A stretch of 64,000 bases of DNA, taken from IMG/VR virus record IMGVR_UViG_2974625098_000001, positions 59,622-123,621 of that record; one strand, given 5' to 3'. Positions 8,972-63,795 of this stretch are shown piece after piece. This stretch comes from a virus (taxonomy: Duplodnaviria > Heunggongvirae > Uroviricota > Caudoviricetes). The translations under genes and the position numbers were made by a program. Under the pieces are notes generated by a model, which saw only the letters and a program-made list of their open reading frames with translations, made no database searches and was not told the DNA's origin. Within the stretch, counting starts at the first letter, position 1. The number at the start of each line of letters is the position of its first letter.

Positions 8972-9235
8972 ATGGACCAAATCGTGAAAGGGATAAGCCG
9001 TGGAGCGCGAGCGCAAGCCTGAGATTGCTGTGAACCTCGTTCGCAAGAGCAACGAGGAGTATTACCGGATTGTCGATGACCAGGAGATGTTCCTGCTCAA
9101 GGCTCGTGGCAACGTCCACTTCGAGAAGGCACGCTTCGACAAGGGCCGTGTGGGCTCTTTCTACGTCGAGATGTAATTTCTCGGCCGGGTTTCGGCCCGG
9201 CAAGCTTTATTGTCCCCACTCATAAGGAGCCAGAC

Positions 9236-9472
9236 ATGGCTGAGGGTTGGAAGAAGAGGATGTATGAGTCCCTGGCAGAGATGCTGAGGGAGGAGCACAA
9301 CCTTGACGCGGTGGAAGTCACCGAATTTGAGGACTACACCGAATATGGCGGGTACTGTGAGACCTGCTACTATGAGGACACGAGGTGCAAGATTTCCTAC
9401 GTGGACTCCCAGGGGGAGACTCAGACCTACAATTATTACGGGTCGTTTGCGGAGCTGGTCGGCTCCATGTAG
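9236..9472 (+). CDS. hypothetical acidic protein
   Basis: track ORF; RBS ATAAGGAGCC; preceded by hairpin-AAGCTT element. Confidence 0.55.
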   Translation: MAEGWKKRMYESLAEMLREEHNLDAVEVTEFEDYTEYGGYCETCYYEDTRCKISYVDSQGETQTYNYYGSFAELVGSM

Positions 9473-10025
9473 CATGGAGAAAGCGGGGACGGCAGGCTGT
9501 ATCCCCCGACACCTGTCGTCCCCGCCTCCTATTCCCCCGTCGGGCCTCTCATGGACCCGCACCCCCTGTGGGCTCCCCCCGGAGCCCGTCCCCCTGAATA
9601 TCCCCCAGGTGCTACGCTGTGGGGGTGACAGGCCGCACAGGCGGAAGCAGCGACTTGACCTCCCCACAGCGCGGACAAACCTTCAGCTTGCCGCCTGGCA
9701 CCACGCGCCAGAGGTGGTACCCGACTGGTAAACACTGGTTGGTTCGTCTCATGTGACACAGTTCATCATGGTTTGACATCCCCCGGCAATGGCTAGTATG
9801 GACTACTAGATGGGGGTTGACAACTGGTCGGATGTGTGGTTGTCAAGCCCCATCTCACAAGACGGACAAGTGGCTCGTGTGGTACCGTCTGGGGCATGTC
9901 AGACACCCCCGTGTTCGACGCTCTGAGGGCCGAACGGCCAGACGTGAAGCTCGAACCTCCCCCGCCCCGTCCACGGCTCCTCACGGGCTACGAGTGGCCC
10001 AGACCAAGGCCCTGGAGCATCCACA

Positions 10026-10313
10026 GTGGACACTAAGCTCTGCGACTTCTGCAACGCTCCCAATCCGACCTGGATGGTGCCTGTGGCCCCGTTCAATTTC
10101 TTGGGCGGTCGGAGCGTAGACGAATGGCTCGCGTGTACGCCCTGTGCGGACCTCGTTCGTGCTGGGTTGTGGAACCGTCTGCTGGCTCGTGTCATCGAAG
10201 CTTGGGACCGTCAACACGACACGCCCATGAACGCTGAGATGATTGAGATTATGCGGACCACCTACAAGAAGCTCAAGAAGAACGTAGACGGTCCTCCGGT
10301 CAGACTTCTCTGA
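10026..10313 (+). CDS. hypothetical Cys-containing protein (CxxC..CxxC)
   Basis: track ORF in high-GC segment; start uncertain. Confidence 0.35.
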   Translation: MDTKLCDFCNAPNPTWMVPVAPFNFLGGRSVDEWLACTPCADLVRAGLWNRLLARVIEAWDRQHDTPMNAEMIEIMRTTYKKLKKNVDGPPVRLL

Positions 10314-10381
10314 GGCACCCACAGGAAAAGCGAACACCCCCGGTTATACCTCTACCGGGGGTGTTCCTGTGAGCCTGTGTC

Positions 10382-10702
10382 TCAGCGACCGTGGGCCATC
10401 TCGTAGGCTTCCATGACGGGCTGTGGGATGCGGCCCTTGGCAGCAATCTTGAAGCCGTGCTTGGCTGCCCACTTGCGGATGTCCTTGAGCTGTTCGCGAC
10501 GGGTGCCAAGGTCCGTCGTGGTGGCTGTGACAGTGGCTCGTGACCGAGAGCGGCCGGTTGTGCCAGTGGCAGGAAGCTCCTCCGTCTCTTGCTTCGGCTG
10601 CCGGATGTTGGCTGCCCACTTGAGGTAGCGAGTAGCGTCCTCATCGGTCAAGGTGATTTGAAGGCCCACAGTGTGTCCTTTCGTGGTGGATGTTGGCCCC
10701 AC
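10382..10702 (-). CDS. Lsr2-like nucleoid-associated DNA-binding protein
   Basis: C-terminus IRKWAAKHGFKIAAKGRIPQPVMEAY matches the Lsr2 DNA-binding domain (RGR-IP motif); track ORF N-terminal part is antisense of tRNA-Arg so true start likely GTG near 10702. Confidence 0.5.
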   Translation of the reverse strand: MGPTSTTKGHTVGLQITLTDEDATRYLKWAANIRQPKQETEELPATGTTGRSRSRATVTATTTDLGTRREQLKDIRKWAAKHGFKIAAKGRIPQPVMEAYEMAHGR

Positions 10703-10830
10703 AATAGCATAGACGTTCGCTTGTGCAAAGTGCCTAAGCCTTCTCCACAGGTGATTCAGCTCATAGTTTGAGACGGTTCGTCCGGGTTTGACACGGGTAG
10801 AAATATCGGCTATTATTTTTTCATCAGCAA

Positions 10831-10904
10831 GTCGCCGTAGCTCAATCGGATAGAGCACTTCGCTACGAACGAAGAGGTTGGGGGTTCGAATCCCTCCGGT
10901 GACA
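10831..10904 (+). tRNA. tRNA-Arg(ACG)
   Basis: acceptor GTCGCCG/CGGTGAC; D arm GCTC-AATCGGATA-GAGC; anticodon arm CTTCG-CTACGAA-CGAAG; T loop TTCGAAT. Confidence 0.7.
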
Positions 10905-10969
10905 CGCAAAGCACAATCAGAGGCTCGTGAAATTTTTCGCGGGCCTCTTTCCAACCAAGGAGAAAAACG

Positions 10970-11224
10970 GTGGAGCTAGAAACCCTCATTGAGATGGGTG
11001 TCTACGAGGTCTCGGGTGTCGATGAGACAGGCGAGCCACTGTATTCGCTCAACGTCCCGATGGCCAAGGAGCTTGCTCCGGAGGTATACTGGGCTGACAG
11101 GAACGCCTGCGAGACTGCGATTTTCGACGCGGTGGAGCAGGGCTATCTGGAGTGGGACGTTGACCCGGAGACTCTGGAGATGACGTTCTCGGTGACCGAG
11201 CTGGGAGAGAAGTTCATCGACTAG
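10970..11224 (+). CDS. hypothetical acidic protein (GTG start)
   Basis: track ORF; RBS AAGGAGAAAAAC. Confidence 0.5.
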   Translation: MELETLIEMGVYEVSGVDETGEPLYSLNVPMAKELAPEVYWADRNACETAIFDAVEQGYLEWDVDPETLEMTFSVTELGEKFID

Positions 11225-11230
11225 CGGTTT

Positions 11231-11303
11231 GCCCCTATAGCTCAGTGGATAGAGCAGGTGCCTTCTAAGCATCTGGCCGCTGGTTCGAGTCCAGCTAGGG
11301 GCG
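11231..11303 (+). tRNA. tRNA-Arg(TCT)
   Basis: acceptor GCCCCTA/TAGGGGC; D arm GCTC-AGTGGATA-GAGC; anticodon loop CTTCTAA; T loop TTCGAGT. Confidence 0.7.
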
Positions 11304-11360
11304 CAATTTTCGGCGGGTTGCCCGCAAGCTCGTTTGTTCGTCCTAACACAGGGAGAAGAG

Positions 11361-17235: not shown

Positions 17236-17294
17236 TTTATGAGCCCCGCTGGAAACGGCGGGGTTCAAGCTATAATAGAATAAGGTGATACAAT

Positions 17295-18832: not shown

Positions 18833-18894
18833 ACTATAGGGGTTCCAGAAAATAACTGGAGCCCCTAAGCTCCAGAAGAAAAGAGGGAAGTAGA

Positions 18895-19089: not shown

Positions 19090-19153
19090 GGTACCATGGG
19101 GCTAACGCCCCAAGCTGACACATTGGTTCCAACCAAAGGGAGAATAAAAACCA

Positions 19154-21076: not shown

Positions 21077-21125
21077 GCGATTGGCCCTTCGGGGCCAAGC
21101 TTCCCAACAAGTTCCAATATTTGGA

Positions 21126-22214: not shown

Positions 22215-22275
22215 TTCCCATGGCCCCCTGGAAAACAGGGGGCCAAGCTTTTTATCCGCCCCGGAAAGGAAAACA

Positions 22276-23572: not shown

Positions 23573-23591
23573 GCAACCCTCTTAAGCAGTA

Positions 23592-23634
23592 GGGCCGAAG
23601 ATTTCGAAAGATTTCTTCGGCCCTAAGCTTTTTG
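23592..23634 (+). terminator. terminator hairpin followed by TAAGCTTTTT
   Basis: GGGCCGAAGA...TCTTCGGCCC then AAGCTTTTTGG. Confidence 0.6.
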
Positions 23635-24904: not shown

Positions 24905-24913
24905 ATTACCATA

Positions 24914-24946
24914 GGGAGGTCTTCGGACCTCCCTAAAGCTTTTTGC
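24914..24946 (+). terminator. terminator with UUCG tetraloop then AAAGCTTTTT
   Basis: GGGAGGTC-TTCG-GACCTCCC then TAAAGCTTTTTGC. Confidence 0.6.
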
Positions 24947-28987: not shown

Positions 28988-29031
28988 CCTTGTGGGGCGC
29001 AAGCCCCAAGCTTCCTACTATGGAGAACAAA

Positions 29032-29525: not shown

Positions 29526-29555
29526 CACCTCGCCCCTTCGGGGGCAAGCTTAAGT

Positions 29556-29578
29556 CCCGGTCCGCCGGGGCTTTTTTA
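29556..29578 (+). terminator. terminator
   Basis: CCCGG-TCCG-CCGGG then GCTTTTTTATT. Confidence 0.6.
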
Positions 29579-29599
29579 TTGCCCGAACGAGAGAATAAT

Positions 29600-30196: not shown

Positions 30197-30248
30197 TTTC
30201 GCCGGGGTTGAGATACCCCGGCAAGCTGGTATACTAAGGAGGTAGAAA

Positions 30249-42178: not shown

Positions 42179-42227
42179 TTTACTGCCCCGGATTTATTCT
42201 GGGGCAAGCTCTCGACTAGGAGGAAGT

Positions 42228-42530
42228 ATGTTTACCGCTCAGCAAATCAAGGACGCCATCGAGAAGGACTGGGAGGGTGACGAGTCCGAGTTCTTTTACT
42301 GCGTTGAGGACAGCGCAGAGCTGGAGTCTCTGGGCGTTGTTGCCAAGGGCGTTGACTCTTACGGTGGTGAGGGCCAGGGTGACTCTCTCTGGGTTGTTTT
42401 CCAGATTGGTGACCAGTTCTTCGAGAAGACTGGTTATTGGCAATCCTGGGAGGGTGGCACTTGGGATGGCGACCTTTATGAGGTCGAGCCTTACGAGGTA
42501 ACCGTTACCAAGTACCGAGCCAAGCGCTAA
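42228..42530 (+). CDS. paralog family member 4
   Basis: FQIGDQFFEKTGYWQSWEGGTWDGDLYEVEPYEVTVTKY. Confidence 0.55.
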   Translation: MFTAQQIKDAIEKDWEGDESEFFYCVEDSAELESLGVVAKGVDSYGGEGQGDSLWVVFQIGDQFFEKTGYWQSWEGGTWDGDLYEVEPYEVTVTKYRAKR

Positions 42531-42563
42531 AAATCCGTGAGATTTTTGGGGATGTTCGTAAAG
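42526..42563 (+). promoter_or_regulatory. copy 3 of bipartite motif AAAAATCCGTGAGATTTTT-N-TTCGTAAAGGG
   Basis: second half embedded in hairpin GGGGATG/CATCCCC. Confidence 0.45.
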
Positions 42564-42577
42564 GGCATCCCCAAAGC

Positions 42578-42607
42578 TATTGACATCAGCTATTGCCGCC
42601 TGGTACT
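42578..42607 (+). promoter_or_regulatory. promoter TTGACA-N18-TACTAT
   Basis: consensus -35; good -10. Confidence 0.5.
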
Positions 42608-42613
42608 ATTAAA

Positions 42614-42712
42614 GTATGTTCTGGCGGACAAACAACAAATAGCTTCGAAATATCTCGTATTTCGCGATAAGCCCCGAAAGACTTCCGCCAGAGTCTTTCG
42701 GGGCTTTTTTCG
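42614..42712 (+). ncRNA. candidate small RNA (about 95 nt) ending at a strong terminator
   Basis: promoter at 42578-42607, then no ORF longer than 8 codons, then terminator GCCCCGAAAGACT-loop-AGTCTTTCGGGGC plus T6 at 42671-42712; internal complementarity TCTGGCGGA/TCCGCCAGA. Confidence 0.4.
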
Positions 42713-42759
42713 TTGCTTAGCTAATGTCAAACCCACAATTAAAAGGAAAATAAGTAAAA

Positions 42760-43689
42760 GTGAATAAGATTGATGTTCGAAAGGGCCTGGGTATTGCGTA
42801 TGCATCGTCATTCGTAATTGCCCTGGCGGCGGCTCTGGCGGTTTCAACGTGGTCTCTGCACCACCTGGGAGCGAAGTTCTTCGACCTCCCGGAATTGCTA
42901 AGCTGGGTAGTTAGTGGAATTTTTGATGTCGGTGCTCTCGGTGCTGCGATTCTCGCAACGCTTTATGCACTCGATGGTGAGTCGGGTGGCAAGGGTAAGT
43001 TCATTGCCTTCCTGATGATTGGAACGTCTGCGTTCCTGAACGCAGAACACGCGCTCATGCTGGGCCATGGATATATTGCAGCTCTGCTGTATGCGGCTCC
43101 AAGCATCGCGGCGGGTTTTCTGCTGGACCTCTTCCTTGACTGGCTCAAGTCTGGTAGCTTGAGGTCACGAGGACGAGTCCACAAGGAATTTCCTCTGGTA
43201 CGACACGCAACACTGTTCTACAACCCACGCAAGTGGATTGGCTTCTACCGCAAGGGTCTGGCTATTGACCTCCAGGTTGCCGAGAGGCAGCTAGAGGATA
43301 GGCTGACTGCCCTTGTGGAGGTCACAGAAAAGGTTGAGCCGAAGGCAATTAAGGCCACGGTCACTCGACTGGACACCGCAAAGAAGAAGCCTGTAGAAAA
43401 GAAGCCAGCCGCTAAGGCTATTGAGGCTAAGAAGCCTCGCCCCAAGAAGGTTCAGGACCCTGAGTCTGGTGCTATTCTCGGTCTCAGCGCGTTCCAGAAT
43501 ATTCCTCAGAACACGTCACACGCCAAGCTGGTGAATATTGCTATGCAGGCTGGCGTCAAGGACCGTGACGTTATCGAACAGGCTATCTTGCTGCACACTG
43601 GCAAGGCTCCAGCTCGTTCAACGCTCAACGCTTACGTTTCTCGTTGGAACCGTGAGCACAAGGACTTGCCAACCGGCATGTACCTCTGA
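42760..43689 (+). CDS. integral membrane protein (4 TM N-terminal domain, DUF2637-like) with lysine/proline-rich linker
   Basis: track ORF; GTG start. Confidence 0.5.
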   Translation: MNKIDVRKGLGIAYASSFVIALAAALAVSTWSLHHLGAKFFDLPELLSWVVSGIFDVGALGAAILATLYALDGESGGKGKFIAFLMIGTSAFLNAEHALMLGHGYIAALLYAAPSIAAGFLLDLFLDWLKSGSLRSRGRVHKEFPLVRHATLFYNPRKWIGFYRKGLAIDLQVAERQLEDRLTALVEVTEKVEPKAIKATVTRLDTAKKKPVEKKPAAKAIEAKKPRPKKVQDPESGAILGLSAFQNIPQNTSHAKLVNIAMQAGVKDRDVIEQAILLHTGKAPARSTLNAYVSRWNREHKDLPTGMYL

Positions 43690-43747
43690 TAGATTATCTG
43701 TGTCGGGCCAAGAGGCCCGGCACAAGCTACTCATCTCGGGAGTAGGC

Positions 43748-44104
43748 ATGACTGAGGTTCTGTACCACAGCGACATTTTTCTGCCCGGCTGGTTTACGGC
43801 TCCTACCCGACGTGTTAAGGTTGACTACGGTCACCACGCCAAGCGTGAGGCCCTGGCTGACCGTTATGGTGAGATTGCCCTTCCGGCATACGTAAACCTC
43901 AAGCGCTTCCGTGTTATTGAGGTTGGTGTTATCAACGGCCGGGTTTCTAAGATTCTGTTCCGTGGTAAGCTCGACAACGAGCGAGACCTCTGCATCGTCC
44001 TTATTCCTCGGGGAGACAACCCCTGGCGCTGCAAGACGGTATGGGTTAACCTGAACAGTGACAAGCACAAGACGCTTGACCGCAGCCGGTACGCTGCTGC
44101 ATAA
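43748..44104 (+). CDS. hypothetical protein
   Basis: RBS CTCGGGAGTAGGC then ATG 43748 in frame of track ORF 43538. Confidence 0.5.
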   Translation: MTEVLYHSDIFLPGWFTAPTRRVKVDYGHHAKREALADRYGEIALPAYVNLKRFRVIEVGVINGRVSKILFRGKLDNERDLCIVLIPRGDNPWRCKTVWVNLNSDKHKTLDRSRYAAA

Positions 44105-44117
44105 TTAGGGGGCAACG

Positions 44118-44288
44118 ATGAAGGACTATTCGCACCTGACTGATGCAGAGTGGGAGAAGGTTTACGCTAACATGTCCACCTGGGAGAAGACGAAAGTCAA
44201 TCTTGCGGTGGTTTTCTTCTTCATCTGCTTGACCTCTTTCTTCTGGGTTCCTGCTGGTCTTATGACTTATGTGGCGCTCAACCACTAG
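44118..44288 (+). CDS. 56-aa membrane protein
   Basis: RBS TTAGGGGGCAACG then ATG; below track cutoff. Confidence 0.35.
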   Translation: MKDYSHLTDAEWEKVYANMSTWEKTKVNLAVVFFFICLTSFFWVPAGLMTYVALNH

Positions 44289-44316
44289 CACAACCGCCCG
44301 GTTCATCCGGGCAAGC

Positions 44317-44346
44317 TTGACAGCATAAGCTGTCGCAAGGTTTAAT
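44317..44346 (+). promoter_or_regulatory. promoter TTGACA-N18-TTTAAT fused to hairpin-AAGCTT element
   Basis: AAGCTTGACA; spacer contains palindrome GACAGC-ATAA-GCTGTC. Confidence 0.45.
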
Positions 44347-44360
44347 CTCGGGAGAACGTT

Positions 44361-44651
44361 ATGGCGCAGCTTCGTCGCTCCAATCGTCGTGCTACCTTTG
44401 AGAACTGCCAGGGTCACGAGATTCCCACCATTCCGGTATCGCGCAAGCCTACCGAGGATTTCTGCCCGGTTCATCAGCGAATGATGGTCAAGTTGGCTGA
44501 CGCCAAGGCGCGCGTTCGTCATGCTGGTAAGATTGTTGTCAGCCGTGCCTCTGAGGAGAATATCGCTACGCTGACGACGGCCAAGGCGGGGGTCAAGGAG
44601 ATGAATTCTCGCATCATGGAGCACCTGCTTTCCTGCGAGACCTGCAAGTAG
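44361..44651 (+). CDS. hypothetical protein
   Basis: track ORF; RBS TCGGGAGAACGTT. Confidence 0.55.
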   Translation: MAQLRRSNRRATFENCQGHEIPTIPVSRKPTEDFCPVHQRMMVKLADAKARVRHAGKIVVSRASEENIATLTTAKAGVKEMNSRIMEHLLSCETCK

Positions 44652-44705
44652 TTTTATCGCCCGGTTGTCCGGGCAAGCTACCTCTAACGACAAGAAAGAG
44701 GGAAT

Positions 44706-44891
44706 ATGGATATTCGTACGGTTCGAATCGCGGGCTATGCACTTCTTCTGTGCTGTGCAGCTCTGCTCTCGGCTGGTAATACTGCTCTTGAGACAGACCA
44801 GACGGTTCTTGCCAACTTCGAATTCTTTATCGCTATGCTGTGCTTCACCAATGGTGGTATGGCTATTGCGATGACTAACGGCATCAAGTAA
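44706..44891 (+). CDS. small membrane protein
   Basis: track ORF. Confidence 0.5.
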   Translation: MDIRTVRIAGYALLLCCAALLSAGNTALETDQTVLANFEFFIAMLCFTNGGMAIAMTNGIK

Positions 44892-44931
44892 TGTCGTAGC
44901 CCGAAAGGGCAAGCTTCCCGCCAACAGGAGG

Positions 44932-45585
44932 ATGGATATGATTGAGTACCCCAAGACCGAGAACCTGTACAAGCGGAACCCCAAGAAGAAGTCTGAACTG
45001 ATTATCGGTGAGTTCACCCGGCCGGAATTTGCGCTTATCAATAAGTGGCATGTAACCGAGAAGGTGGACGGCACGAACGTTCAGCTCAAGTTCTTCAAGG
45101 ACGGCCTTTGGGAGTGGTACGGTCGGACTGCGAACGCGCAGTTTACCATTGGCCAGAACGATTATCTCGATGACCTTGGCTTTGCGATTCACCAGGACGT
45201 AGCGCGGGGAATGGAACAGTTCAACCTGGACACCATGACCCTGTACGGTGAGCTGTACGGCCCGAAGATTCAGGCGGGCGGGAATTATTCCGATGTCCTC
45301 GGATTCCGCATGTTTGACATCATGGTCAACGATAAGACCTGGCTGGGTGCGGACCAGGTAAAGGCGAATGCGGATGTGTTCGGCCTGGATTATGTTCCGT
45401 ACTTTGGTCACCTGACCACGGATGAGATTTTCGAGATGGTCAGCACTGGCTTTGTCTCGACGTTCTCTCAGAACCGTGAGTATCAGGCAGAGGGAATCGT
45501 GGCGGTTACGCCGGTTCCGATGTACGACCAGCGGGGAGCGCGAATCAAGTTCAAGTTGAAGACGAAGGACTTGAAGTATGTGTGA
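44932..45585 (+). CDS. second ATP-dependent RNA ligase (Rnl2-like nucleotidyltransferase-only type)
   Basis: motif I TEKVDGTNV (KxDG), motif IV AEGIVAV, motif V RIKFKLK; 217 aa. Confidence 0.6.
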   Translation: MDMIEYPKTENLYKRNPKKKSELIIGEFTRPEFALINKWHVTEKVDGTNVQLKFFKDGLWEWYGRTANAQFTIGQNDYLDDLGFAIHQDVARGMEQFNLDTMTLYGELYGPKIQAGGNYSDVLGFRMFDIMVNDKTWLGADQVKANADVFGLDYVPYFGHLTTDEIFEMVSTGFVSTFSQNREYQAEGIVAVTPVPMYDQRGARIKFKLKTKDLKYV

Positions 45586-45778
45586 GCCTGTTCAGAAAGA
45601 AATCGACCCGGCTGTTGGTCCGTGTGTTTGCGGCGATTCAGTTTGGTCTGCTGTTGGACATTGTCCTGGTAAGGACGGGGACCTGAGAGCTTATTACTCT
45701 TGTCCTCGCCGCGAGGGTCTGTTCAAAATTGGTGAGCTGTTGCCCGAGAGTTCTTATCTCAAGCGCCACGGCTTTTAA
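45578..45778 (+). CDS. Cys-rich small protein
   Basis: track ORF; overlap ATGTGTGA. Confidence 0.45.
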   Translation: MCEPVQKEIDPAVGPCVCGDSVWSAVGHCPGKDGDLRAYYSCPRREGLFKIGELLPESSYLKRHGF

Positions 45779-45807
45779 TCACCAGCCCCCGAAAGGGGGC
45801 AAGCTCG

Positions 45808-45845
45808 CAAAATCCGTGAGATTTTCCTACCCTTTCGTAAAGGAG
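45808..45845 (+). promoter_or_regulatory. copy 4 of bipartite motif AAAATCCGTGAGATTTT-N16-CGTAAAGGAG
   Basis: directly after a hairpin-AAGCTC element; ends 7 nt before ATG 45852. Confidence 0.45.
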
Positions 45846-45851
45846 AGACGC

Positions 45852-46130
45852 ATGTCTCAGCCCTGGAGCATCACCGGCTGGTCTACTGAGTTCCGGCAGG
45901 TTGGTCCCGAGGAATATCGATACAAGGTCAAGGACCCAGAGGGAAAGACCTGGCACCGTAACGGGGTTTCTGAGTTCACCGCTCAGGGCACCCAGCAAGA
46001 GGCTCTGGCCGAGATGAAGGACAAGGTTAGGTCTTTCGTCAGCACCTATGCCGCAGCGAAGGCACCGGTACAGGTCTACACCTTCTTTGATGAGAACGAC
46101 GACCCTCGTGAGGTTGACACAACGAGCTAG
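45852..46130 (+). CDS. hypothetical protein
   Basis: ATG 45852 in frame of track ORF 45729. Confidence 0.5.
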   Translation: MSQPWSITGWSTEFRQVGPEEYRYKVKDPEGKTWHRNGVSEFTAQGTQQEALAEMKDKVRSFVSTYAAAKAPVQVYTFFDENDDPREVDTTS

Positions 46131-46175
46131 GGTCTGTATATTCTTTCTTGTCAGCACGACAACGAAGGGAAGCAC

Positions 46176-46436
46176 ATGAACGACATGGTTACTTTTGAGG
46201 CAAGCGCTGATGGTGGCTGGCACTACTTCACGGTTCGTTTTCTCGGAGGCAACCTGGACGCTCGTGCGGCCAACTACGTGAAGCGTAACGTTCACCTTGT
46301 GTTTCTGATTGATGATGACCAGCTCGATGGCCACCCGCTTTTGCAGGAAGCTCTTTATCCTTCCTGTGAGCACGGTCTGTCTCTTAGCCTCTGCGCTGGC
46401 CCTGGTCACTACCCGATGGATAATCAGTTCGTCTAA
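46176..46436 (+). CDS. hypothetical protein
   Basis: track ORF. Confidence 0.5.
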   Translation: MNDMVTFEASADGGWHYFTVRFLGGNLDARAANYVKRNVHLVFLIDDDQLDGHPLLQEALYPSCEHGLSLSLCAGPGHYPMDNQFV

Positions 46437-46463
46437 AAAATCGGGCGGGTTCGCCCGCCAAGC

Positions 46464-46492
46464 TTGACGCTACAAGCGTCGCCATGTACGAT
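46464..46492 (+). promoter_or_regulatory. promoter TTGACG-N17-TACGAT fused to hairpin-AAGCTT element
   Basis: AAGCTTGACG; near-consensus hexamers. Confidence 0.4.
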
Positions 46493-46520
46493 GGTTACAC
46501 CTTCTCGGGAAAGAGGACAT

Positions 46521-46970
46521 GTGAACCTGATGCTTGCTGAGCGTATGGCCCGTAAGCTGATGCTGGACCACGGTCTGTACGGCTGGAATTTCAAGTGGGA
46601 CAATGCAGCTCGCCGGTTCGGGCAGACCGATTATTCCAAGGCCACCATTTCGCTGTCTCGTAAGCTGACTGTTCAGCGAACCGAGGACGCCGTTCGTAAC
46701 ACGATTCTCCACGAGATTGCCCACGCTCTTACTCCGGGAGCTGGCCACGGTCCTAAGTGGCGAGCCAAGGCCCTGTCTATCGGATGTAACGGAAAGCGTT
46801 GTTCGGATGACCCGGTTGAGGTTAAGCCGAATTGGATTGGCAAGTGCCCGAATGGGCACACGGCCGGTACTCGTCTCCGTCGTCCTTCTGCCAAGGCCCG
46901 CCCGATGTCGTGTGGTAAGTGCTCTCCGGTTTACAACGACAAGTACGTTATCCGCTGGGTTGCGGCATAA
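46521..46970 (+). CDS. SprT-like zinc metalloprotease domain protein
   Basis: YGWNFKWDNAARRFG ... ILHEIAHAL (HExxH) plus C-terminal CxxC zinc ribbon; GTG start after GAAAGAGGA. Confidence 0.55.
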   Translation: MNLMLAERMARKLMLDHGLYGWNFKWDNAARRFGQTDYSKATISLSRKLTVQRTEDAVRNTILHEIAHALTPGAGHGPKWRAKALSIGCNGKRCSDDPVEVKPNWIGKCPNGHTAGTRLRRPSAKARPMSCGKCSPVYNDKYVIRWVAA

Positions 46971-47016
46971 TCTACTGGGGTCGAAAGACCCCAAGCTTCC
47001 CCAATTAGGAGATATA

Positions 47017-47238
47017 ATGAACAAGTGGCTTGCCAAGCACGCGTCCACAATCAGCCTTTTCCTGGCTGGGTGGTTCTTGGTGAATGCTGTTCTGGATGCC
47101 GTGAGCGGTAAGTGGAGCGAGTTCTGGCTCGACCTGATTATCGTTGTTAGCAACCTGAACCTTGCTGTGTATGAGCACGAAATTAAGCACGGGCTTCTTG
47201 TGCGGCCGAAGCGGGACAGCTTCGACTATTCCAAGTAA
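47017..47238 (+). CDS. small membrane protein
   Basis: RBS TTAGGAGATATA then ATG 47017; in frame of track ORF 46717. Confidence 0.5.
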   Translation: MNKWLAKHASTISLFLAGWFLVNAVLDAVSGKWSEFWLDLIIVVSNLNLAVYEHEIKHGLLVRPKRDSFDYSK

Positions 47239-47286
47239 TACTCGCGGGCCGAAAGGCCCGCAAGCTTCCCTACCAAGGAGAATGAA

Positions 47287-47523
47287 ATGCGTAAGCGCAG
47301 CGACGGTTATATGTTCGCGTTCCTGGTTAACCTGGCGGGGTTCTTCATTAACCTGGCCCTGTTCATTATCTGGGCACACCAGGACTTTGTTCCGGGAATG
47401 GCTATCAACGGATGCGCTGGGGCGTTTTCCTTCACGCTGGCGATGGTCAACCTGTCTCGTTACCTCAAGGCTTCTTTCGATGAGGACATGGACGAGATTT
47501 ACCGCCGGATTTACGGCAAGTAG
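47287..47523 (+). CDS. small 2-TM membrane protein
   Basis: track ORF; RBS CCAAGGAGAATG. Confidence 0.55.
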   Translation: MRKRSDGYMFAFLVNLAGFFINLALFIIWAHQDFVPGMAINGCAGAFSFTLAMVNLSRYLKASFDEDMDEIYRRIYGK

Positions 47524-47569
47524 CAACACCTGGCCCGCAAGGGCCAAGCTTTCCAACGAAGGGAATAAA

Positions 47570-47785
47570 ATGGCCGGGTATGACTCAAAGTCTGAGAACC
47601 GGATGGTGGTCTCTATTGCGGCCATCGTCGCAACGGTTATTCTCGGTGGGATTGGTGCTGGAGCCTTTACAGCTCACGAGAACAACATCAAGTCTCGCAA
47701 GGTTGCAACGGTGTGTGCTGAGCATGGTGGCACTTTCCGTCAGGGTGGCCAAGGCGAGATGACTTGCGACGGCATTAAGAAGTAA
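47570..47785 (+). CDS. small membrane-anchored protein
   Basis: RBS GAAGGGAATAAA then ATG 47570. Confidence 0.5.
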   Translation: MAGYDSKSENRMVVSIAAIVATVILGGIGAGAFTAHENNIKSRKVATVCAEHGGTFRQGGQGEMTCDGIKK

Positions 47786-47859
47786 CCAACCTGCCCGGCA
47801 ACGGGCAAGCTACATATGGTGGTACAAAAAACCGCTGTATGGCTTTCTAAGGAGGAAAA

Positions 47860-48150
47860 ATGCGGGTGTGGCTCGATGACCTTCGGGAAGCTCCGAGCGG
47901 CTGGCTATGGCTCACCAGTAGCCGTACAGCCATCACCTGGCTTGAGTGGGCCAAGATGCTCAACGCTAGGCCAGAAGTTATGTCGTTTGACCATGACCTA
48001 GGGGGTAGCGACACCTCGCGGGCTGTGGTACTTTGGATGTGTGAGAACGAGTTCTGGCCTGACCAGTGCTTTATCCACAGTGCCAACCCAGTAGGCCGCG
48101 AGTGGCTGGCTGGTATGATTAACCGCTACGGACCTGGAGTGTCGCGATGA
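47860..48150 (+). CDS. hypothetical protein
   Basis: track ORF; RBS CTAAGGAGGAAAA. Confidence 0.55.
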   Translation: MRVWLDDLREAPSGWLWLTSSRTAITWLEWAKMLNARPEVMSFDHDLGGSDTSRAVVLWMCENEFWPDQCFIHSANPVGREWLAGMINRYGPGVSR

Positions 48151-48431
48151 GTTGGCAGGCAGGCTTGGAAGAGGCTCTTGACGAGCTGGAAATTCCGTGC
48201 TTTATTTCTAACATCAACGGTCGTAAGGTCGTTCGTGTTGAGATGGGCAGTAAGGCCATCGAGATTGAGCGTTGGGGCAGCAAGATTTTCTTCTCCGTCA
48301 TGGAGTGGGACGAGACTGGTGGCCTGACTGACGAAATCTCGCACACCGAAGTGTCTCTTACGGACGAGACCCCCGTAACAGCTTCCCGTCTGGCAGAAAT
48401 CGCTCTCAGCATTTACTCGGAATACGAGTAA
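48147..48431 (+). CDS. hypothetical protein
   Basis: track ORF; ATGA overlap. Confidence 0.5.
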   Translation: MSWQAGLEEALDELEIPCFISNINGRKVVRVEMGSKAIEIERWGSKIFFSVMEWDETGGLTDEISHTEVSLTDETPVTASRLAEIALSIYSEYE

Positions 48432-48535
48432 GGTATAATTGAATATAAGGCCCGGCTGTTCGCGGTCGGGCCTTTAGCTTGCCCCAAGCAAAACCAATCA
48501 ACCCAATCCGGCGTGGTTTACCGGAGTAAGGAGAA

Positions 48536-48997
48536 ATGCTAATGCGTAAGGTGATTTCGGTCGTAGCTATTGCGGCTGGTTTTACTCTTGCTATGTCGCA
48601 GAATGCTAACGCGACCACTGTTCAGTCCAAGGCATATAGTGTTGCCAAGGCGCAGCTCGGAGACCCCTATGTTTACGGGGCCGTTGGGCCTAACTCGTTT
48701 GACTGTTCGGGTCTCACCCAGTATTCGTATAAAAAGGCCGGGAAGTATATTCCCCATTACACAGGTTCACAGTTCAAGTACACCAATGACATCACTGTGA
48801 ATCAGCGTGTGCCGGGGGATTTGATTTTCTGGTCTCATAAGGGAACACATGACCGGTTCCATGTGAGCATGTATGCTGGCAACGGCTATATGATTCACGC
48901 CAACGCCGGTTCGTACCTTGGCTACAAGGTGGTCAAGGAAAAGGTTGGCTCCTACTGGTCCAAGCACTACAATGGCGATTATCGCCGGGTCAAGTAA
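48536..48997 (+). CDS. secreted NlpC/P60 family cell-wall peptidase
   Basis: signal peptide; DPYVYGAVGPNSFDCSGLTQYSY (Cys), HVSMY/MIHA (His) NlpC/P60 motifs. Confidence 0.65.
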   Translation: MLMRKVISVVAIAAGFTLAMSQNANATTVQSKAYSVAKAQLGDPYVYGAVGPNSFDCSGLTQYSYKKAGKYIPHYTGSQFKYTNDITVNQRVPGDLIFWSHKGTHDRFHVSMYAGNGYMIHANAGSYLGYKVVKEKVGSYWSKHYNGDYRRVK

Positions 48998-49049
48998 GGT
49001 ACTTGACAGCCAGGCTTCGGTCTGGCAAGCTTCCTACCAGGAGGTAAAA

Positions 49050-49226
49050 ATGAAGTCGGTTCTTGCGTCCCTCGGGTACTTCCTTATGGTACTCTGGTTC
49101 TGCATCGGCCTGGTAAATATGGCGTCCGACAAGCCCCTGTGGCTGGTCGCTATCAACTTCGGTACCGCTTGCATCTGGGGTGTCACTGCTACCTTGTGGA
49201 TGGTTGCGGCAGCGAACGAGAGATAA
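49050..49226 (+). CDS. 58-aa 2-TM membrane protein (holin-like candidate)
   Basis: RBS CCAGGAGGTAAAA then ATG 49050; directly downstream of the peptidase. Confidence 0.45.
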   Translation: MKSVLASLGYFLMVLWFCIGLVNMASDKPLWLVAINFGTACIWGVTATLWMVAAANER

Positions 49227-49319
49227 TGCTTGACAGCCAGACGAAAGTCTGGCAAGCTTATTACATCACCACGAAGGGAGGCGGAATGAATGTGTTAGTA
49301 CCTTAAGGAGGTATTAATA

Positions 49320-50835: not shown

Positions 50836-50872
50836 GGCCGGTTCTATGATTAGAACCGGCCAAGCTTTTTAT
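50836..50872 (+). terminator. terminator hairpin followed by AAGCTTTTTAT
   Basis: GGCCGGTTCTA-TGAT-TAGAACCGGCC then AAGCTTTTTATC. Confidence 0.6.
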
Positions 50873-51040
50873 CTCGGGAGGTAGTCATGTGTACCGATGG
50901 TAAGGACCACGAGTGGGTCATCTGGTCCGGAAAGTTTCGTTGCCGCAAGTGTGGCACTACAGGCTAGGACCGTGTAAGATAATCAGTACAGGGCGGGGGA
51001 GACCCCGCCAAGCTCTCCAATCTAATCTCGGGAGGATTTA

Positions 51041-51704: not shown

Positions 51705-51862
51705 AGATGGTTTGTCCGTTCTGTAAGCGAATGATTTGCATTTGTCGCCGCATCCTGGGGCGATAAAAAATCTTGGGTGGGTGCTTGCGCCCACCAAGCT
51801 CGGTAGGATACAGTAGTCCTACCAACAAGGGGAACGAACCCCTAATAATCTCGGGAGAATAC

Positions 51863-52537: not shown

Positions 52538-52596
52538 GTAGTACCGAGGGGCTGGGAAACCAGCCCCTCAAGCTTTTTATACCAAGGAGGGAAATA

Positions 52597-52948: not shown

Positions 52949-53223
52949 AAAACGGCGGGGTTTCGTAAACAAGACCCCGCAAGCTTCCCTGATTGACAGG
53001 GATAATTTGGATATGTTAGGCTTCCGGTATGAGATTCGAAATTAAGGAAGAAACATACAAGCACGGTCGTAAGACCGAAAAGCAGTTCGCAATCTTTGAT
53101 AAGTTCAAGGGCGAGGTTGTCGTCCGATACGCTGAGCGCAAGAAGTGCCAGGAACTTATCGATAAGTACGAAGCTGCTCAGGCTGCTGCGGAAAAGTAGC
53201 AGATAAATTCTCGGGAGAGTCCA

Positions 53224-53790: not shown

Positions 53791-54043
53791 AACCCCGTTC
53801 ATATTCAACTGCCCCGGACCGGACATCCGGGGCAAAGCTCGCACAAGGTGCAAATCGGACATACCGGACAGAGTAAAAAATCTTGAAGTTTGGGCTTGCC
53901 AAGTAAAGACAGGCCGCGTAGTCTTATGGATGTCGGCAGGGGAGAGCGACAGGGAACCAAGGCCCAACAGTCCCCCAGCTAGACAAAGTAAAGAAAATCC
54001 ACTAAGCTCTTACTCACAAGGGCACTCGGTCTCGGGAGTAAAA

Positions 54044-56687: not shown

Positions 56688-56761
56688 CACTAGCCCCGGT
56701 CTAAAAAGCCGGGGCTAAGCTTTGCCAGGAGGCTGGCAATATCGGAAACACTGGAGAATGA

Positions 56762-58086: not shown

Positions 58087-58153
58087 TTATCCGGCGGGGT
58101 GTGCTAGAATCGTAAGCACACCCGGTAAGCTCGTCCAGTGAGAGGCAGAGATA

Positions 58154-58585: not shown

Positions 58586-58650
58586 GCAATACTGGCCCCG
58601 AAAGGGGCCAAGCTTTTACCCACAATGTCTAGTATCTCGGGAGACATAGT

Positions 58651-58968: not shown

Positions 58969-59030
58969 TACCAGCCGGGCGAAAGCCCGGCAAGCTTTTC
59001 CCTATTCGTAACGACGAAAGAGTCTCGGGA

Positions 59031-61466: not shown

Positions 61467-61469
61467 CCC

Positions 61470-61558
61470 GCTGCAAAGCCTATGCGGGCCGGTTATCCGG
61501 CCCGTGTGGAATGCGCAGTAAGTCAAGCGCAGACAGAAAAGCTCGAAAGGGAAAAGCT
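61470..61558 (+). repeat. structured intergenic repeat, copy 1 of 3
   Basis: AAAGCCTATGCG, then hairpin GGCCGGTTATCCGGCC, then GTGTGGAATGCGC...AAGCGCAGA...AAAGCT. Confidence 0.5.
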
Positions 61559-61957
61559 ATGGACAAGCTCACTCGCCGAATTGCTCTCGCCGAATTGAAA
61601 GAACTCAAGGCGCGGGAAGCGGAATACCGCGCGGAGCGTGAGGAATGGTACCGGTCGGGCGACGGTCGGCGTCCGCATTACTGGACCGACCCGGAAACGG
61701 GCCGGACGCACAATTACGGCGGGAAGGGATACACGTTCCCTTACTGCGAGCATGGTTCGTCGCGTTGGACGGACTATGACAACATCTGCGGCCCGTGTGA
61801 GGACGGATACAGCGTCTATCAGTTGGCCATCTGGAATGCGGAAGAAAAGGTGTCCGCGTACCGTGAGCGCTGCGACTGGGTTTTGAGCGCTCCGAAGCAT
61901 CTTGACCCGGACACCAAAAGCGAATTGGTCAAGTGGGCAATTTCGGCACTGGATTAG
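61559..61957 (+). CDS. hypothetical Cys-rich protein
   Basis: RBS AAGGGAAAAGCT then ATG 61559; in frame of track ORF 61463. Confidence 0.5.
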   Translation: MDKLTRRIALAELKELKAREAEYRAEREEWYRSGDGRRPHYWTDPETGRTHNYGGKGYTFPYCEHGSSRWTDYDNICGPCEDGYSVYQLAIWNAEEKVSAYRERCDWVLSAPKHLDPDTKSELVKWAISALD

Positions 61958-62053
61958 GCTTTAGGCAAAGCCTATGGGTGTCGGGTAGCAATATCCGACA
62001 CCCGTGGAATGCGCCTAACGTCAAGCGCAGAGAAAAGCTAGAAAGGCTAGACC
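61958..62053 (+). repeat. structured intergenic repeat, copy 2 of 3
   Basis: same flanks as copy 1; hairpin replaced by TGTCGGGTAGCAATATCCGACA (compensatory changes). Confidence 0.5.
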
Positions 62054-62293
62054 GTGAGTGAAATTCAGGCAATGGACCCTATGGCTTACCGGTTGCTCGC
62101 AATTCGGCGCGGGCTCATTCTCAAGATTGACACGGGAATGGAACTCACCCGTACGGCAACGTCCCTGTCTGTCGCACGGCGCGACGGATTGACAGACAAG
62201 CGAACCAATCGGGGAGCGCTAAAGGACGTGAACGCGTTTCTTGAGACGCACGGCGTACCGGCCGCATGGTCGCGTACTTACCCGAACGGCTGA
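62054..62293 (+). CDS. hypothetical protein
   Basis: track ORF (GTG); alternative ATG at 62072. Confidence 0.45.
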   Translation: MSEIQAMDPMAYRLLAIRRGLILKIDTGMELTRTATSLSVARRDGLTDKRTNRGALKDVNAFLETHGVPAAWSRTYPNG

Positions 62294-62294
62294 C

Positions 62295-62390
62295 AGGCTT
62301 TAGGCAAAGCCTATGCGGCCCGGATATTCCGGGCCGTGTGGAATGCGCCTAACACCTAAGCGCAGACACATAGCTGAAAGGCAAAACCCA
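62295..62390 (+). repeat. structured intergenic repeat, copy 3 of 3
   Basis: same flanks; hairpin GGCCCGGATATTCCGGGCC. Confidence 0.5.
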
Positions 62391-62558
62391 TGAACATTCG
62401 CACCGTTTCCGTCAACGGCCGTACCGGTATCGTCGTTGGCACGCGTACCAACAAGGCGGGCGACGTGACGCGCGGCATTCTGTGGGATGACGCGGACGTT
62501 ATCGGCTGGATTCCGGCCGGTTCGATTGACTCCGCCGTTTCGCTTGCCAAGCGCTGAA
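62391..62558 (+). CDS. 55-aa protein
   Basis: RBS TGAAAGGCAAAACCC then ATG; MNIRTVSVNGRTGIVVGTRTNKAGDVTRGILWDD; antisense track ORFs here look spurious. Confidence 0.4.
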
Positions 62559-62685
62559 ACAAAGCGCGCTACAAAAAATCGCTGTGTGGCCGCTAGGGAC
62601 ACTCTCTAGCGGCCCATGGGCAATGAGTCCAACCAACTAGCCAAACGCGCTCACACGGGCGCACAGACACTCTCTAGGGGAAGCT

Positions 62686-62958
62686 ATGCAGCGCATCACG
62701 GTTGACAACGTTCGGAACGCGTTCGCCCGGTACGTGCGAGCGTGTGAGGCATGGGGGTATGACGTGACCGGATGGCAGATGAGTGAAGGGGAGTACGGCG
62801 CAGCGTGGCGCGTAGGCGTCAAGGGGAACGGTTCCGCTCGAAAGCTTCCGGGCGTGGACGATTACGGGATTGTCGGTTACTCCCGTAGGGAGGTTTACGA
62901 AATGCTGCACACCATTTCGCGCACGCTGGAAGATGTGCCGATTGGTGGCGTTAAGTAA
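62686..62958 (+). CDS. hypothetical protein
   Basis: track ORF; RBS CTAGGGGAAGCT. Confidence 0.5.
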   Translation: MQRITVDNVRNAFARYVRACEAWGYDVTGWQMSEGEYGAAWRVGVKGNGSARKLPGVDDYGIVGYSRREVYEMLHTISRTLEDVPIGGVK

Positions 62959-62971
62959 ATCCGGCTGAGTT

Positions 62972-63013
62972 TAGGGATAGCCATTCTCTCGAAAAAGGGA
63001 ATGGCTATCCCTA
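62972..63013 (+). terminator. 15-bp perfect hairpin (possible terminator or processing site)
   Basis: TAGGGATAGCCATTC-loop-GAATGGCTATCCCTA; no U tract. Confidence 0.4.
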
Positions 63014-63046
63014 TGTCCAATCGGGTTAGGCGAGAAAGGCACAAAA

Positions 63047-63526
63047 GTGATTGGCAACAAAACCGAAGCTTCCGAAATTCTCGCCGCTCACAAGAAAGGC
63101 GATATTCCGGCCGGTTGGGAACTTATCGGTAAGGGTGGTTACCGGTACGCGTACCTTTCCCCTACGGGAGTTGTGTACAAAATCGAAAGGGGAAGGAAGG
63201 GACAGAGCAACCGGGGTGAATTCGAGCGCGCGTCAGAATTGCGTATCTCGGATGCGGCGAAAGCTGCCAACGTCTACATTCCGCGTGTGTGGCTTTACAC
63301 CATTCGGAAGACTGACGTTATCGCAATGGAATACGTCAAGGGTGAGTATTCGTCTCCGCTCCATTGCCTTGACGATTGCGACTGTGGGGAGCGTTTCAAC
63401 GGAACGTGCGCTAGCTCGCAATTTCTGAATCTCGAAAGCAAGTTGGGAATGCGTGATATCACGTCACGCAATGCGGTTTTCATTCCCGCGCAAAAGCGTT
63501 GGGCACTGATTGATTTGGGGGCCTGA
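63047..63526 (+). CDS. protein kinase-like domain protein (paralog B)
   Basis: GKGGYRYAYLSPTGVVYKIE, DITSRNAVF, ALIDLGA; similar to ORF 51041. Confidence 0.45.
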   Translation: MIGNKTEASEILAAHKKGDIPAGWELIGKGGYRYAYLSPTGVVYKIERGRKGQSNRGEFERASELRISDAAKAANVYIPRVWLYTIRKTDVIAMEYVKGEYSSPLHCLDDCDCGERFNGTCASSQFLNLESKLGMRDITSRNAVFIPAQKRWALIDLGA

Positions 63527-63527
63527 A

Positions 63528-63686
63528 ATGGAAAAGCTCGAAGAATTCGCCGCGCGACTGGAAATGGAACAAGCGCGACGGGATTACCGGGGTACGTGGT
63601 CAAGCTTCGACCGACACGCGGAATCGTCGGCATGGGATTACACGAATGCCTGTTACCGCGTATGGGCATACGAAACGAACCGATAA
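63528..63686 (+). CDS. 52-aa protein
   Basis: ATGA overlap with previous stop; below track cutoff. Confidence 0.3.
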   Translation: MEKLEEFAARLEMEQARRDYRGTWSSFDRHAESSAWDYTNACYRVWAYETNR

Positions 63687-63795
63687 TGCCCTAGCGCATT
63701 TAGGGGCGGGCACGTTGTGCCCGTTCCCTATGTCCGCTAGGACAACGGAAAAGCGGCCGGATATCCGCTTAAGCTCTCGGGAAAGAAGAAACACA

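Follow-up and report, generated by a model that had tools for sequence, protein, structure and literature searches.

The 64,000-bp stretch of viral DNA analysed here, referred to throughout as the window, is identical in sequence to bases 59622-123621 of the genome of Streptomyces phage BillNye (NC_042105.1; 127,084 bp), a member of the genus Wilnyevirus within the subfamily Loccivirinae of the family Stanwilliamsviridae. It takes in the last part of the replication module together with the long right arm, in which about 145 mostly small genes of unassigned function, 31 tRNA genes and a tmRNA gene are carried on the + strand nearly throughout. Most genes of this arm are lineage-specific, and about 80% of the genes have no known function according to a paper on close relatives (10.1101/2024.02.16.580700). 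The subject of this analysis is a small element that recurs between these genes, in which a hairpin of variable sequence is followed directly by the pentamer AAGCT. This hairpin-AAGCT element is real and specific to the + strand.

We defined the element strictly as a perfect stem of at least 5 bp, no fewer than 4 of them G-C, that closes a loop of 3-8 nt and is followed without a gap by AAGCT. This definition yields 48 copies on the + strand of the window and 5 on the - strand, compared with a mean of 0.5 and a maximum of 3 in 200 dinucleotide shuffles scanned in the same way. A preliminary description of the sequence had claimed about 48 copies, and the shuffled-control scan of both strands bears this out. 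It had also allowed a gap of 0-2 nt between stem and core, for which the correct value is 0. The whole BillNye genome contains 49 strict copies, 48 of them inside the window and one in the structural and replication half, and about seven looser copies can be added, in which the stem is only 4 bp long, contains a mismatch or is interrupted by an internal loop. The strict scan is supported by a covariance model trained on 15 copies sharing one geometry, which gives 45 matches on the + strand and 4 weak matches on the - strand at E<=1, and 28 matches at E<0.01, all 28 of which are on the + strand. The - strand copies (5-7 matches) are artefacts in which the AAGCTT palindrome lies beside small hairpins in promoter spacers; genes on that strand are few, and they end in ordinary terminators.

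The core is strict, because each one-mismatch variant of AAGCT is seen at most 4 times after a hairpin, which is background. AAGCT itself is the commonest pentamer following any such hairpin (48 occurrences), and next come versions of it shifted by one or two bases, and then TTTTT (7). In the window there are 162 occurrences of AAGCTY, where shuffles give 74.7 +/- 9.9, and intergenic AAGCT without a hairpin is found about 20 times, near the chance level for 15 kb of spacer. The core carries about 10 bits of information, and 41 of 49 stems close with a G-C pair. The sixth base is most often T (31 copies), less often C (10) and seldom A (5) or G (3); the three positions past it are pyrimidine-rich and C is enriched at +7 to +9 after the core, with no position downstream of the core above 0.6 bit and nothing conserved at a fixed distance.

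Several features suggest that the element acts in RNA. Tetraloops are present in 33 of the 49 copies, and 25 of these 33 are of the UUCG (10) or GNRA (15) types, compared with 3 UUCG and 27 GNRA loops (30 together) among the 190 other four-base-loop hairpins of the phage. The tetraloop types named in the preliminary description are thereby confirmed (UUCG 10, GAAA 8, GCAA 6 and GAGA 1 among the 33). UUCG and GNRA loops stabilise RNA hairpins, which suggests that the structure is selected in the transcript. The stems are 5-14 bp long, 27 of the 49 being no longer than 7 bp, and the median hairpin energy is -14.7 kcal/mol. When folding is predicted in context, the 3' arm is paired with a probability above 0.95 and AAGCU is about half unpaired; its mean unpaired probability is 0.52 versus 0.41 in the surroundings, which is a modest effect. 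In the window, Rfam 15 at the gathering score matches only tRNAs and the tmRNA, such that the element belongs to no family known there.

The position of the element relative to genes is regular. The hairpin starts 4-11 nt past the upstream stop codon in most copies, with a median of 7, and one copy is preceded by a tRNA gene instead of a coding one. Between the core and the start codon that follows there are most often 19-21 nt, which is barely room for a Shine-Dalgarno sequence, with a long tail to 60 nt and beyond; where the spacer is longer the surplus sequence, promoters included, is always 3' of the element and never 5'. Stop-codon anchoring and the downstream location of the surplus sequence therefore assign the element to the end of single cistrons or of small blocks in which cistrons are coupled. 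Between 29 and 59.3 kb it is present at 40 of the 80 same-strand junctions and at 38 of the 53 whose spacer is at least 30 nt, the other junctions being between overlapping or abutting genes; the earlier statement that almost every gene between 29 and 59 kb is preceded by one was thus too strong. In runs such as those at 34.8-37.8 kb and 46.9-47.6 kb the element is found at every junction with a core-to-start gap of 19-24 nt, and because such a gap leaves no room for a promoter, polymerase must read through these runs if the downstream genes are expressed.

The annotated starts of gp125 (RIIB; TTG at 21081), gp107 (TTG at 28990) and gp076 (GTG at 41320) span a hairpin-AAGCT element and are without a Shine-Dalgarno sequence, and in each case an in-frame start with GGAG ahead of it is available, at 21126 for gp125, 29032 for gp107 and 41350 for gp076. 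From this arrangement of the sequence the three annotated starts are probably mis-called.

The element is shared with other members of the subfamily. The right arm of Wakanda contains 48 strict copies and the whole Byblos genome 49, with the same right-arm distribution, and 36 copies were counted in 50 kb of TunaTartare, a phage of another genus with a G+C content of 47% and next to no nucleotide similarity to BillNye. Of the orthologous junctions at which the genes on both sides could be paired up, 16 of 17 in Wakanda and 18 of 19 in Byblos carry the element, and so the comparison of related phages proposed in the preliminary description finds it kept at most of them. At these Wakanda and Byblos junctions AAGCT is unchanged and the stem sequences are often wholly different. 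A 15-sequence alignment has two-sided changes at six of seven pairs, a count that is illustrative only because the alignment was selected for pairing.

Outside the subfamily the element was not seen in the two phage genomes examined. Karimac (MH590599.1), which belongs to the sister subfamily Boydwoodruffvirinae and grows on S. griseus, as do several of the carriers, has zero copies, and so does the more distantly related Rhodococcus phage Francesca. Karimac has an intergenic unit of its own, on the - strand at about 40900-49100 in a terminal block of leftward genes, which is composed of a UUCG hairpin, (A)GCCGCCCCGG, 2-4 nt and AAAAGATCTT. Hosts and other viruses were scanned with the pattern GCSSSSTTCGSSSSGCAAGCTT, which represents one geometry of the element. 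Across 185,579 bacterial and archaeal species genomes this gave 60 scattered matches, which is the chance level, with one in Streptomyces; IMG/VR gave 4 matches, all in contigs of about 100-130 kb. The element is thus a feature of one phage subfamily and not of its hosts. We found no description of it in the searchable literature, including the sole paper describing close relatives, in agreement with the earlier remark that it was not a described element. A hairpin of free sequence joined at zero distance to an invariant pentamer, present in about 50 copies and confined to one lineage, is a new combination, and in function it resembles known intercistronic processing or stabilising hairpins and the U-less hairpin 3' ends of actinobacteria.

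The individual copies in the window are given here from left to right. All are on the + strand, each is a strict-scan copy unless described as looser, and those marked CM were found in the covariance-model search. The leftmost lies at 136-167 (11-bp stem, GCAA loop, AAGCTT and then a T-run) and the next at 7597-7635 (14-bp stem, AAGCTT), the latter having an orthologue in Wakanda. They are followed by copies at 9184-9207 (7 bp, UUCG loop, AAGCTT; CM, E 3.5e-08), at 11313-11331, 8 nt past a tRNA-Arg gene (5 bp, AAGCTC; CM), at 17241-17272 (11 bp, GAAA loop, AAGCTA), at 18838-18872 (11 bp, AAGCTC), at 19098-19117 (5 bp, AAGCTG), where the Wakanda and Byblos stems are different, and at 21083-21102 within the annotated 5' end of RIIB (5 bp, UUCG loop, AAGCTT). 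Two members of a terminator-like subset, at 22222-22250 (9 bp) and 24912-24941 (10 bp, UUCG loop), both continue as AAGCTTTTT; between them, at 23591-23630, is a looser copy consisting of a long hairpin with an internal loop (fold -23.8 kcal/mol), also with AAGCTTTTT. The copy at 28994-29013 (5 bp, GCAA loop, AAGCTT) precedes one at 29532-29551 (5 bp, UUCG loop, AAGCTT), right after which there is a separate canonical terminator at 29552-29580. At 30201-30228 (8 bp, AAGCTG) a -35-like TTGAGA is in the loop and TATACT is past the core, and further copies are at 31497-31525 (9 bp, AAGCTT) and 32459-32490 (11 bp, AAGCTTTT; CM).

A dense series begins at 34817-34840 (7 bp, UUCG loop, AAGCTT; CM, E 7e-09) and continues, with AAGCTT in each, at 35555-35579 (7 bp; CM), 35863-35887 (6 bp; CM), 36203-36226 (7 bp; CM), 37334-37359 (8 bp, UUCG loop; CM) and 37743-37762 (5 bp, UUCG loop). 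The 11-bp hairpin at 38706-38737 (AAGCTC) has a TTGACA -35 across its loop and TACAAT past the core. Beyond it are copies at 39268-39297 (9 bp, AAGCTT), 40553-40572 (5 bp, GCAA loop, AAGCTC), 40789-40806 (looser, a 4-bp GCCC/GGGC stem with a UUCG loop and AAGCTG; CM), 41322-41341 (5 bp, GCAA loop, AAGCTG) and 42185-42211 (8 bp, AAGCTC). Two copies are joined to a TTGACA -35, at 42547-42579 (11 bp, AAGCTA) and 44296-44318 (6 bp, AAGCTT; CM), with one at 43700-43729 (10 bp, AAGCTA) between them. The series then runs through 44659-44680 (6 bp, AAGCTA), 44899-44916 (looser, 4-bp stem, GAAA loop, AAGCTT; CM), 45785-45806 (6 bp, GAAA loop, AAGCTC) and 46444-46465 (6 bp, UUCG loop, AAGCTT), the last of these joined to TTGACG-17-TACGAT, to 46977-46998 (6 bp, GAAA loop, AAGCTT), 47244-47267 (7 bp, GAAA loop, AAGCTT; CM), 47532-47551 (5 bp, GCAA loop, AAGCTT) and 47793-47812 (5 bp, GCAA loop, AAGCTA).

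At both 49009-49032 (UUCG loop; CM) and 49236-49259 (GAAA loop; CM) a 7-bp stem with AAGCTT has TTGACA immediately 5'. Two further members of the terminator-like subset, which again continue as AAGCTTTTT, are at 50836-50867 (11 bp) and 52546-52575 (10 bp, GAAA loop), and copies at 50992-51015 (7 bp, GAGA loop, AAGCTC; CM) and 51776-51801 (8 bp, AAGCTC) lie between them. To the right are those at 52955-52986 (9 bp, AAGCTT; CM), 53810-53840 (9 bp, AAGCTC), 56692-56722 (9 bp, AAGCTT), 58094-58132 (looser, mismatched stem, AAGCTC; fold -18.6 kcal/mol), 58594-58615 (6 bp, GAAA loop, AAGCTT), 58974-58997, which is the best CM match (7 bp, GAAA loop, AAGCTT; E 2e-09), and 63751-63776 (6 bp, AAGCTC).

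Compared with this catalogue, the core positions listed in the preliminary description are essentially right, apart from displacements of 1 at 19113, 39291, 44676, 47263 and 50863 and of 10 at 51806 and 56727. The entries at 23625, 40801, 44911 and 58127 are copies, with stems that are imperfect or 4 bp; the entry at 13413 has no hairpin and is merely the promoter-like AAGCTTGACA. Six strict copies had been left out, those with cores at 162, 7630, 38732, 42574, 52570 and 53835.

We tentatively read the hairpin-AAGCT unit, at somewhat less than even confidence, as an intercistronic RNA element that combines a 3'-protecting hairpin with an endonuclease site, AAG↓CUU (the arrow marks the cut). 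A 3'-stabilising hairpin with an RNA-processing site was one of the alternatives raised in the preliminary description, and it is the one favoured here by the RNA-type tetraloops, the stop-codon anchoring, the promoter-less runs, the small number of U-tails and the fit to RN↓CNU. Host RNA polymerase would produce long rightward transcripts of many genes, passing most copies, and the element would act in this RNA. The two joined parts of the element are a very stable hairpin with a G-C closing pair, about 7 nt past the stop codon, and, immediately 3' of the stem, AAGCU(U/C), which is read as single-stranded and gives way to pyrimidine-rich sequence. An endoribonuclease, for which host RNase E is the likeliest candidate, would cut within AAGCU, most likely between G and C, and hairpin-AAGCUUCCC RNA is a candidate RNase E substrate with a predicted cut at the core. 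The upstream message would be left with a hairpin-AAG-3'OH end resistant to 3' exonucleases, and the downstream message would begin at CUU, about 22 nt ahead of the start codon and with its Shine-Dalgarno sequence intact, the net outcome being separately stabilised messages of one or a few genes out of one transcript. Some transcription probably also ends at the few copies that combine long stems with AAGCUUUUU.

Mycobacterial RNase E prefers RN↓CNU, cutting 5' of a cytidine at 88-90% of mapped sites, and its sites are single-stranded, C-rich and enriched between the genes of operons (PMC10641625; PMC6448022). AAG↓CUU matches this preference in having A at -2 and C at +1, with U at +3 in 31 of 49 copies (C in 10). 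In Streptomyces Term-seq data, moreover, transcript 3' ends formed by a hairpin that lacks a U-tract are a recognised class (PMC8269248). The sense strand of the structural and replication genes (BillNye record 1-59621) contains 49 copies of AAGCT where synonymous-codon shuffles predict 70 (z -4.7), which makes AAGCT the 16th most depleted of 957 five-mers, those ahead of it including GGAGG and the words that contain GATC; the reverse complement AGCTT is not depleted in those genes and is slightly enriched. This is a hint that AAGCU may be costly inside messages.

A number of points weigh against processing by RNase E. The right-arm genes show no AAGCT depletion (z -1.4). The fit to RN↓CNU is weak evidence, as it amounts to about 5 bits and by our estimate about one in eight random C-containing hexamers would fit, and the core of about 10 bits is stricter than the RNase E preference requires, which suggests a more specific reader. 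The host itself does not use the signal, the geometry scanned being at chance level in bacterial genomes, and Karimac has the same host species as some carriers and is without the element. The model also leaves unexplained that the downstream fragment, with a 5'-monophosphate, should decay faster. Cleavage, the position of the cut and the enzyme responsible are each something that we infer. Streptomyces phage phiC31 reportedly has poly-U-less terminators in its early region, to go by the title of a 1995 paper by Ingham and colleagues cited in PMC2602773. Finally, the RN↓CNU preference was measured in mycobacteria, another genus than Streptomyces (PMC10641625; PMC6448022).

A rather doubtful alternative is that the element is a partial terminator, or attenuator, of host RNA polymerase, in which the hairpin pauses or releases the polymerase and AAGCU stands in for the U-tract or adds to it, perhaps as a pausing or releasing signal helped by NusG or Rho, with each copy lowering transcription of the next gene so that a gradient of expression results. 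The placement is that of a classic terminator, just past a stop codon and ahead of any promoter, and stems are longest, at a mean of 10.2 bp, in the six copies with AAGCUUUUU. The overlap of several copies with promoters recalls promoter-coupled terminators (10.64898/2026.08.19.745784), hairpin 3' ends without a U-tract are numerous in Streptomyces (PMC8269248), and the poly-U-less terminators reportedly present in phiC31 point the same way. However, when a U-tail is scored as at least 5 T in an 8-nt window beginning 0-2 nt past the stem, only 6 of 49 copies have one and 43 do not, the first four bases past the stem being AAGC in every copy, whereas actinobacterial polymerase depends on a U-tract in vitro: recombinant mycobacterial RNA polymerase is not stopped by bare hairpins even with NusA or NusG (PMC3993855). 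Up to six promoter-less elements also follow one another, and a termination efficiency of even 50% at each would leave less than 2% of expression at the end. Separate strong canonical terminators coexist with the element, at 29552, 33700, 38131 and 42669, the first directly behind a copy, and the requirement for five specific bases past the stem is not explained by known termination mechanisms. The intrinsic-terminator behaviour proposed earlier is accordingly plausible for the six copies with AAGCUUUUU and long stems and not for the others; most copies are not standard terminators, and partial termination is possible, especially in the U-tailed subset. A phage-encoded reader is a further rival, and although we think it somewhat unlikely it is a serious one, because the core is stricter than RN↓CNU, that preference comes from outside Streptomyces and the host does not use the signal. 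Here a Loccivirinae-specific protein would bind or cut the hairpin base and AAGCU, making some 50 cistrons one post-transcriptional regulon controlled through translation, stability, anti-termination or cleavage, in the manner of T4 RegA and RegB or of a Cas6-type hairpin nuclease. The strict core of about 10 bits and the G-C closing pair in 41 of 49 copies are in keeping with such a protein, as is the presence of the element in all four Loccivirinae lineages examined together with its absence from Karimac, Francesca and bacterial genomes; the hairpins of Karimac have another fixed sequence, as if the readers were lineage-specific, and the roughly 80% of genes without known function (10.1101/2024.02.16.580700) offer room for one. 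Against this, the 25 Pfam families listed from the scan of the 145 window proteins include no endoribonuclease and no KH, S1 or RRM-type RNA-binding domain (the left-arm proteins being mostly unscanned), no candidate has been identified, and fifty binding sites are many for a regulator.

Readings in which AAGCT is a DNA signal fare worse. It is improbable that AAGCT(T) is part of a promoter, either a weak -10-like sequence or the site of a phage-modified polymerase, with the hairpin as terminator of the previous gene. Both AAGCTT and CAAGCT have A at position 2 and T at position 6, TTGACA is 17-18 bp upstream in two copies (at 49003 and 49230), and promoters with only a -10 are common in actinobacteria. 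The register is not fixed, however, since TTGACA-like hexamers are found before the hairpin (49003, 49230), in its loop (38716, 30208) or after the core (42580, 44313, 46464), with the proper -10 elsewhere. An invariant central G and C are unlike a sigma-70-type -10, AAGCTT matching TATAAT at 2 of 6 positions; zero gap to the stem is needless for two independent parts; the roughly 20 hairpin-less intergenic copies of AAGCT are near chance; and downstream Shine-Dalgarno sequences would be merely 7-10 nt from such a transcript start. A phage RNA polymerase was not found in the proteins searched, and no polymerase family is among the Pfam families listed for the window proteins. Two large unassigned proteins considered as RNA polymerases proved to be lectin- or glucanase-like instead. 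The promoter reading, which the preliminary description had offered as an alternative, is rejected on the variable register and the chance frequency of hairpin-less AAGCT. A role in DNA as a mobile repeat, a recombination or nicking site, or a HindIII-type AAGCTT palindrome subject to restriction or methylation is more improbable still. AAGCTT is a palindromic restriction site, the phage encodes DNA methylases and HNH nucleases, and restriction-site avoidance is strong elsewhere, GATC being absent; but one third of the cores are non-palindromic (AAGCTC, AAGCTA, AAGCTG), the tetraloops are of the RNA-stabilising kind, and the copies are intergenic only and at a fixed spacing from stop codons. 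Mobile repeats of the REP or MITE type were rejected, as stem sequences vary from copy to copy and between orthologues, with just AAGCT and the closing G-C pair in common, so the copies have not been transposed. An RNase III site of the T7 type, with a duplex of about 20 bp or more, was likewise rejected, the stems here being 5-14 bp.

Among known systems, the RNase III sites of the T7 early genes and the RNase E sites of T4 gene 32 and gene 59 are places where a host endonuclease cuts long transcripts and a 3' hairpin is kept by the upstream message. The BillNye copies are similarly repeated intercistronic RNA structures in a lytic phage, although cleavage is here something we infer from sequence. 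T7 sites are long imperfect duplexes, about 10 per genome, in which RNase III cuts inside the stem; the BillNye element, in contrast, has about 55 copies with a conserved single-stranded 5-mer outside the stem, and its stems, at 5-14 bp, are too short for RNase III. REP or BIME palindromes and stabiliser hairpins such as that of E. coli malE-malF are barriers to 3' exonucleases that set the stability of operon segments. They too are intergenic hairpins in many copies, but REP sequences are found in bacterial chromosomes and have a conserved stem, whereas the phage element has a variable stem and a fixed flank. The start-associated sequences of Cluster K and the stoperators of Cluster A mycobacteriophages are lineage-specific intergenic repeats in one orientation, and the BillNye element is like them in being short, lineage-specific and repeated between actinobacterial phage genes in one orientation; it differs in being anchored to stops and in combining structure with sequence, those being plain motifs that are start-anchored or repressor-bound as DNA. 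We know of no terminator class with a fixed non-U pentamer at the base of the stem, and, unlike terminators, the majority of BillNye copies have to be passed by polymerase; canonical terminators are also present beside them. As G+C-rich hairpins just past stop codons, the copies nonetheless resemble intrinsic terminators, including the 'I-shaped' U-less kind of GC-rich bacteria and those without poly-U reported for phage phiC31. A U-run is present in a subset here, and 3' ends at hairpins lacking a U-tract are common in Streptomyces (PMC8269248). The resemblance to actinobacterial RNase E sites lies in C at +1, a purine at -2, U at +3 and a position beside structure between co-transcribed genes (PMC10641625; PMC6448022), and to a modest degree in unpaired, C-rich surroundings, although those sites are loose and have no hairpin at zero distance, whereas all five bases of the phage core are invariant. 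A T-tract spacer and a fixed geometry characterise promoter-coupled terminators (Fletcher et al. 2026 preprint, 10.64898/2026.08.19.745784), which terminate about 10 bp before the start site. Some BillNye copies are like these in that the hairpin DNA carries or abuts a -35 with a -10 within 20 bp (38706, 30201, 42547, 44296, 46444), but most are promoter-less and the register is variable.

Other features of the genome were noted alongside the element. The phage encodes an RNA-repair set comprising a polynucleotide kinase-phosphatase, two RNA ligases and a cyclic-phosphate-processing receiver domain (window 33757-34812, 36250-37122, 44938-45585 and others), and a more remote possibility is that the predicted cut ends, 5'-P-CUU and AAG-3'OH, are substrates for the two RNA ligases and the polynucleotide kinase. 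Further phage genes encode an SsgA-like protein, a NADAR domain and three Lsr2-like proteins. GATC has 0 occurrences in all 127,084 bp of BillNye versus about 491 expected from base composition, and all eight GATC-containing 5-mers top the list of depleted words in its coding sequence, which suggests strong avoidance of a GATC-specific restriction or methyl-dependent system. The sequence TCTCGGGA has 15 copies on the + strand, with about 3 expected on both strands; 12 of these are within 43.7-63.8 kb (window 43734-63782) and adjoin start codons on the upstream side, and it looks like a second type of ribosome-binding site, unlike the TACTAAGGAG type used further left. Another repeat, TTCGTAAAGG, has seven exact + strand copies (28300, 32519, 39064, 42555, 45834, 53778, 59678) and 15 with one mismatch versus 3.3 expected, which are sited in leaders or hairpin loops; at 32485 and 45801 it comes after a common AAAATCCGTGAGATTTTC unit. 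Near the right end, at window 61467-62400, three consecutive spacers contain near-identical units of the form CTATG(C/G)G, hairpin, AATGCGC, and these form a separate repeat family that may supply early-region signals.

Within this phage family the element already sharpens gene calls, three probably mis-called starts being flagged in BillNye alone. More broadly, U-less hairpins are common at the transcript ends of high-GC actinobacteria, and whether these arise by termination or are processed ends is disputed. With about 50 such hairpins in one phage lineage, each followed by a pentamer compatible with RNase E, this 3'-end question becomes testable, the copies serving as fifty natural replicates for deciding between cleavage and termination. 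If the element is indeed a processing-and-stabilising module it could serve as a portable part for balancing the expression of Streptomyces operons, and if it is instead read by a phage protein it would represent a new phage system for the post-transcriptional control of messages.

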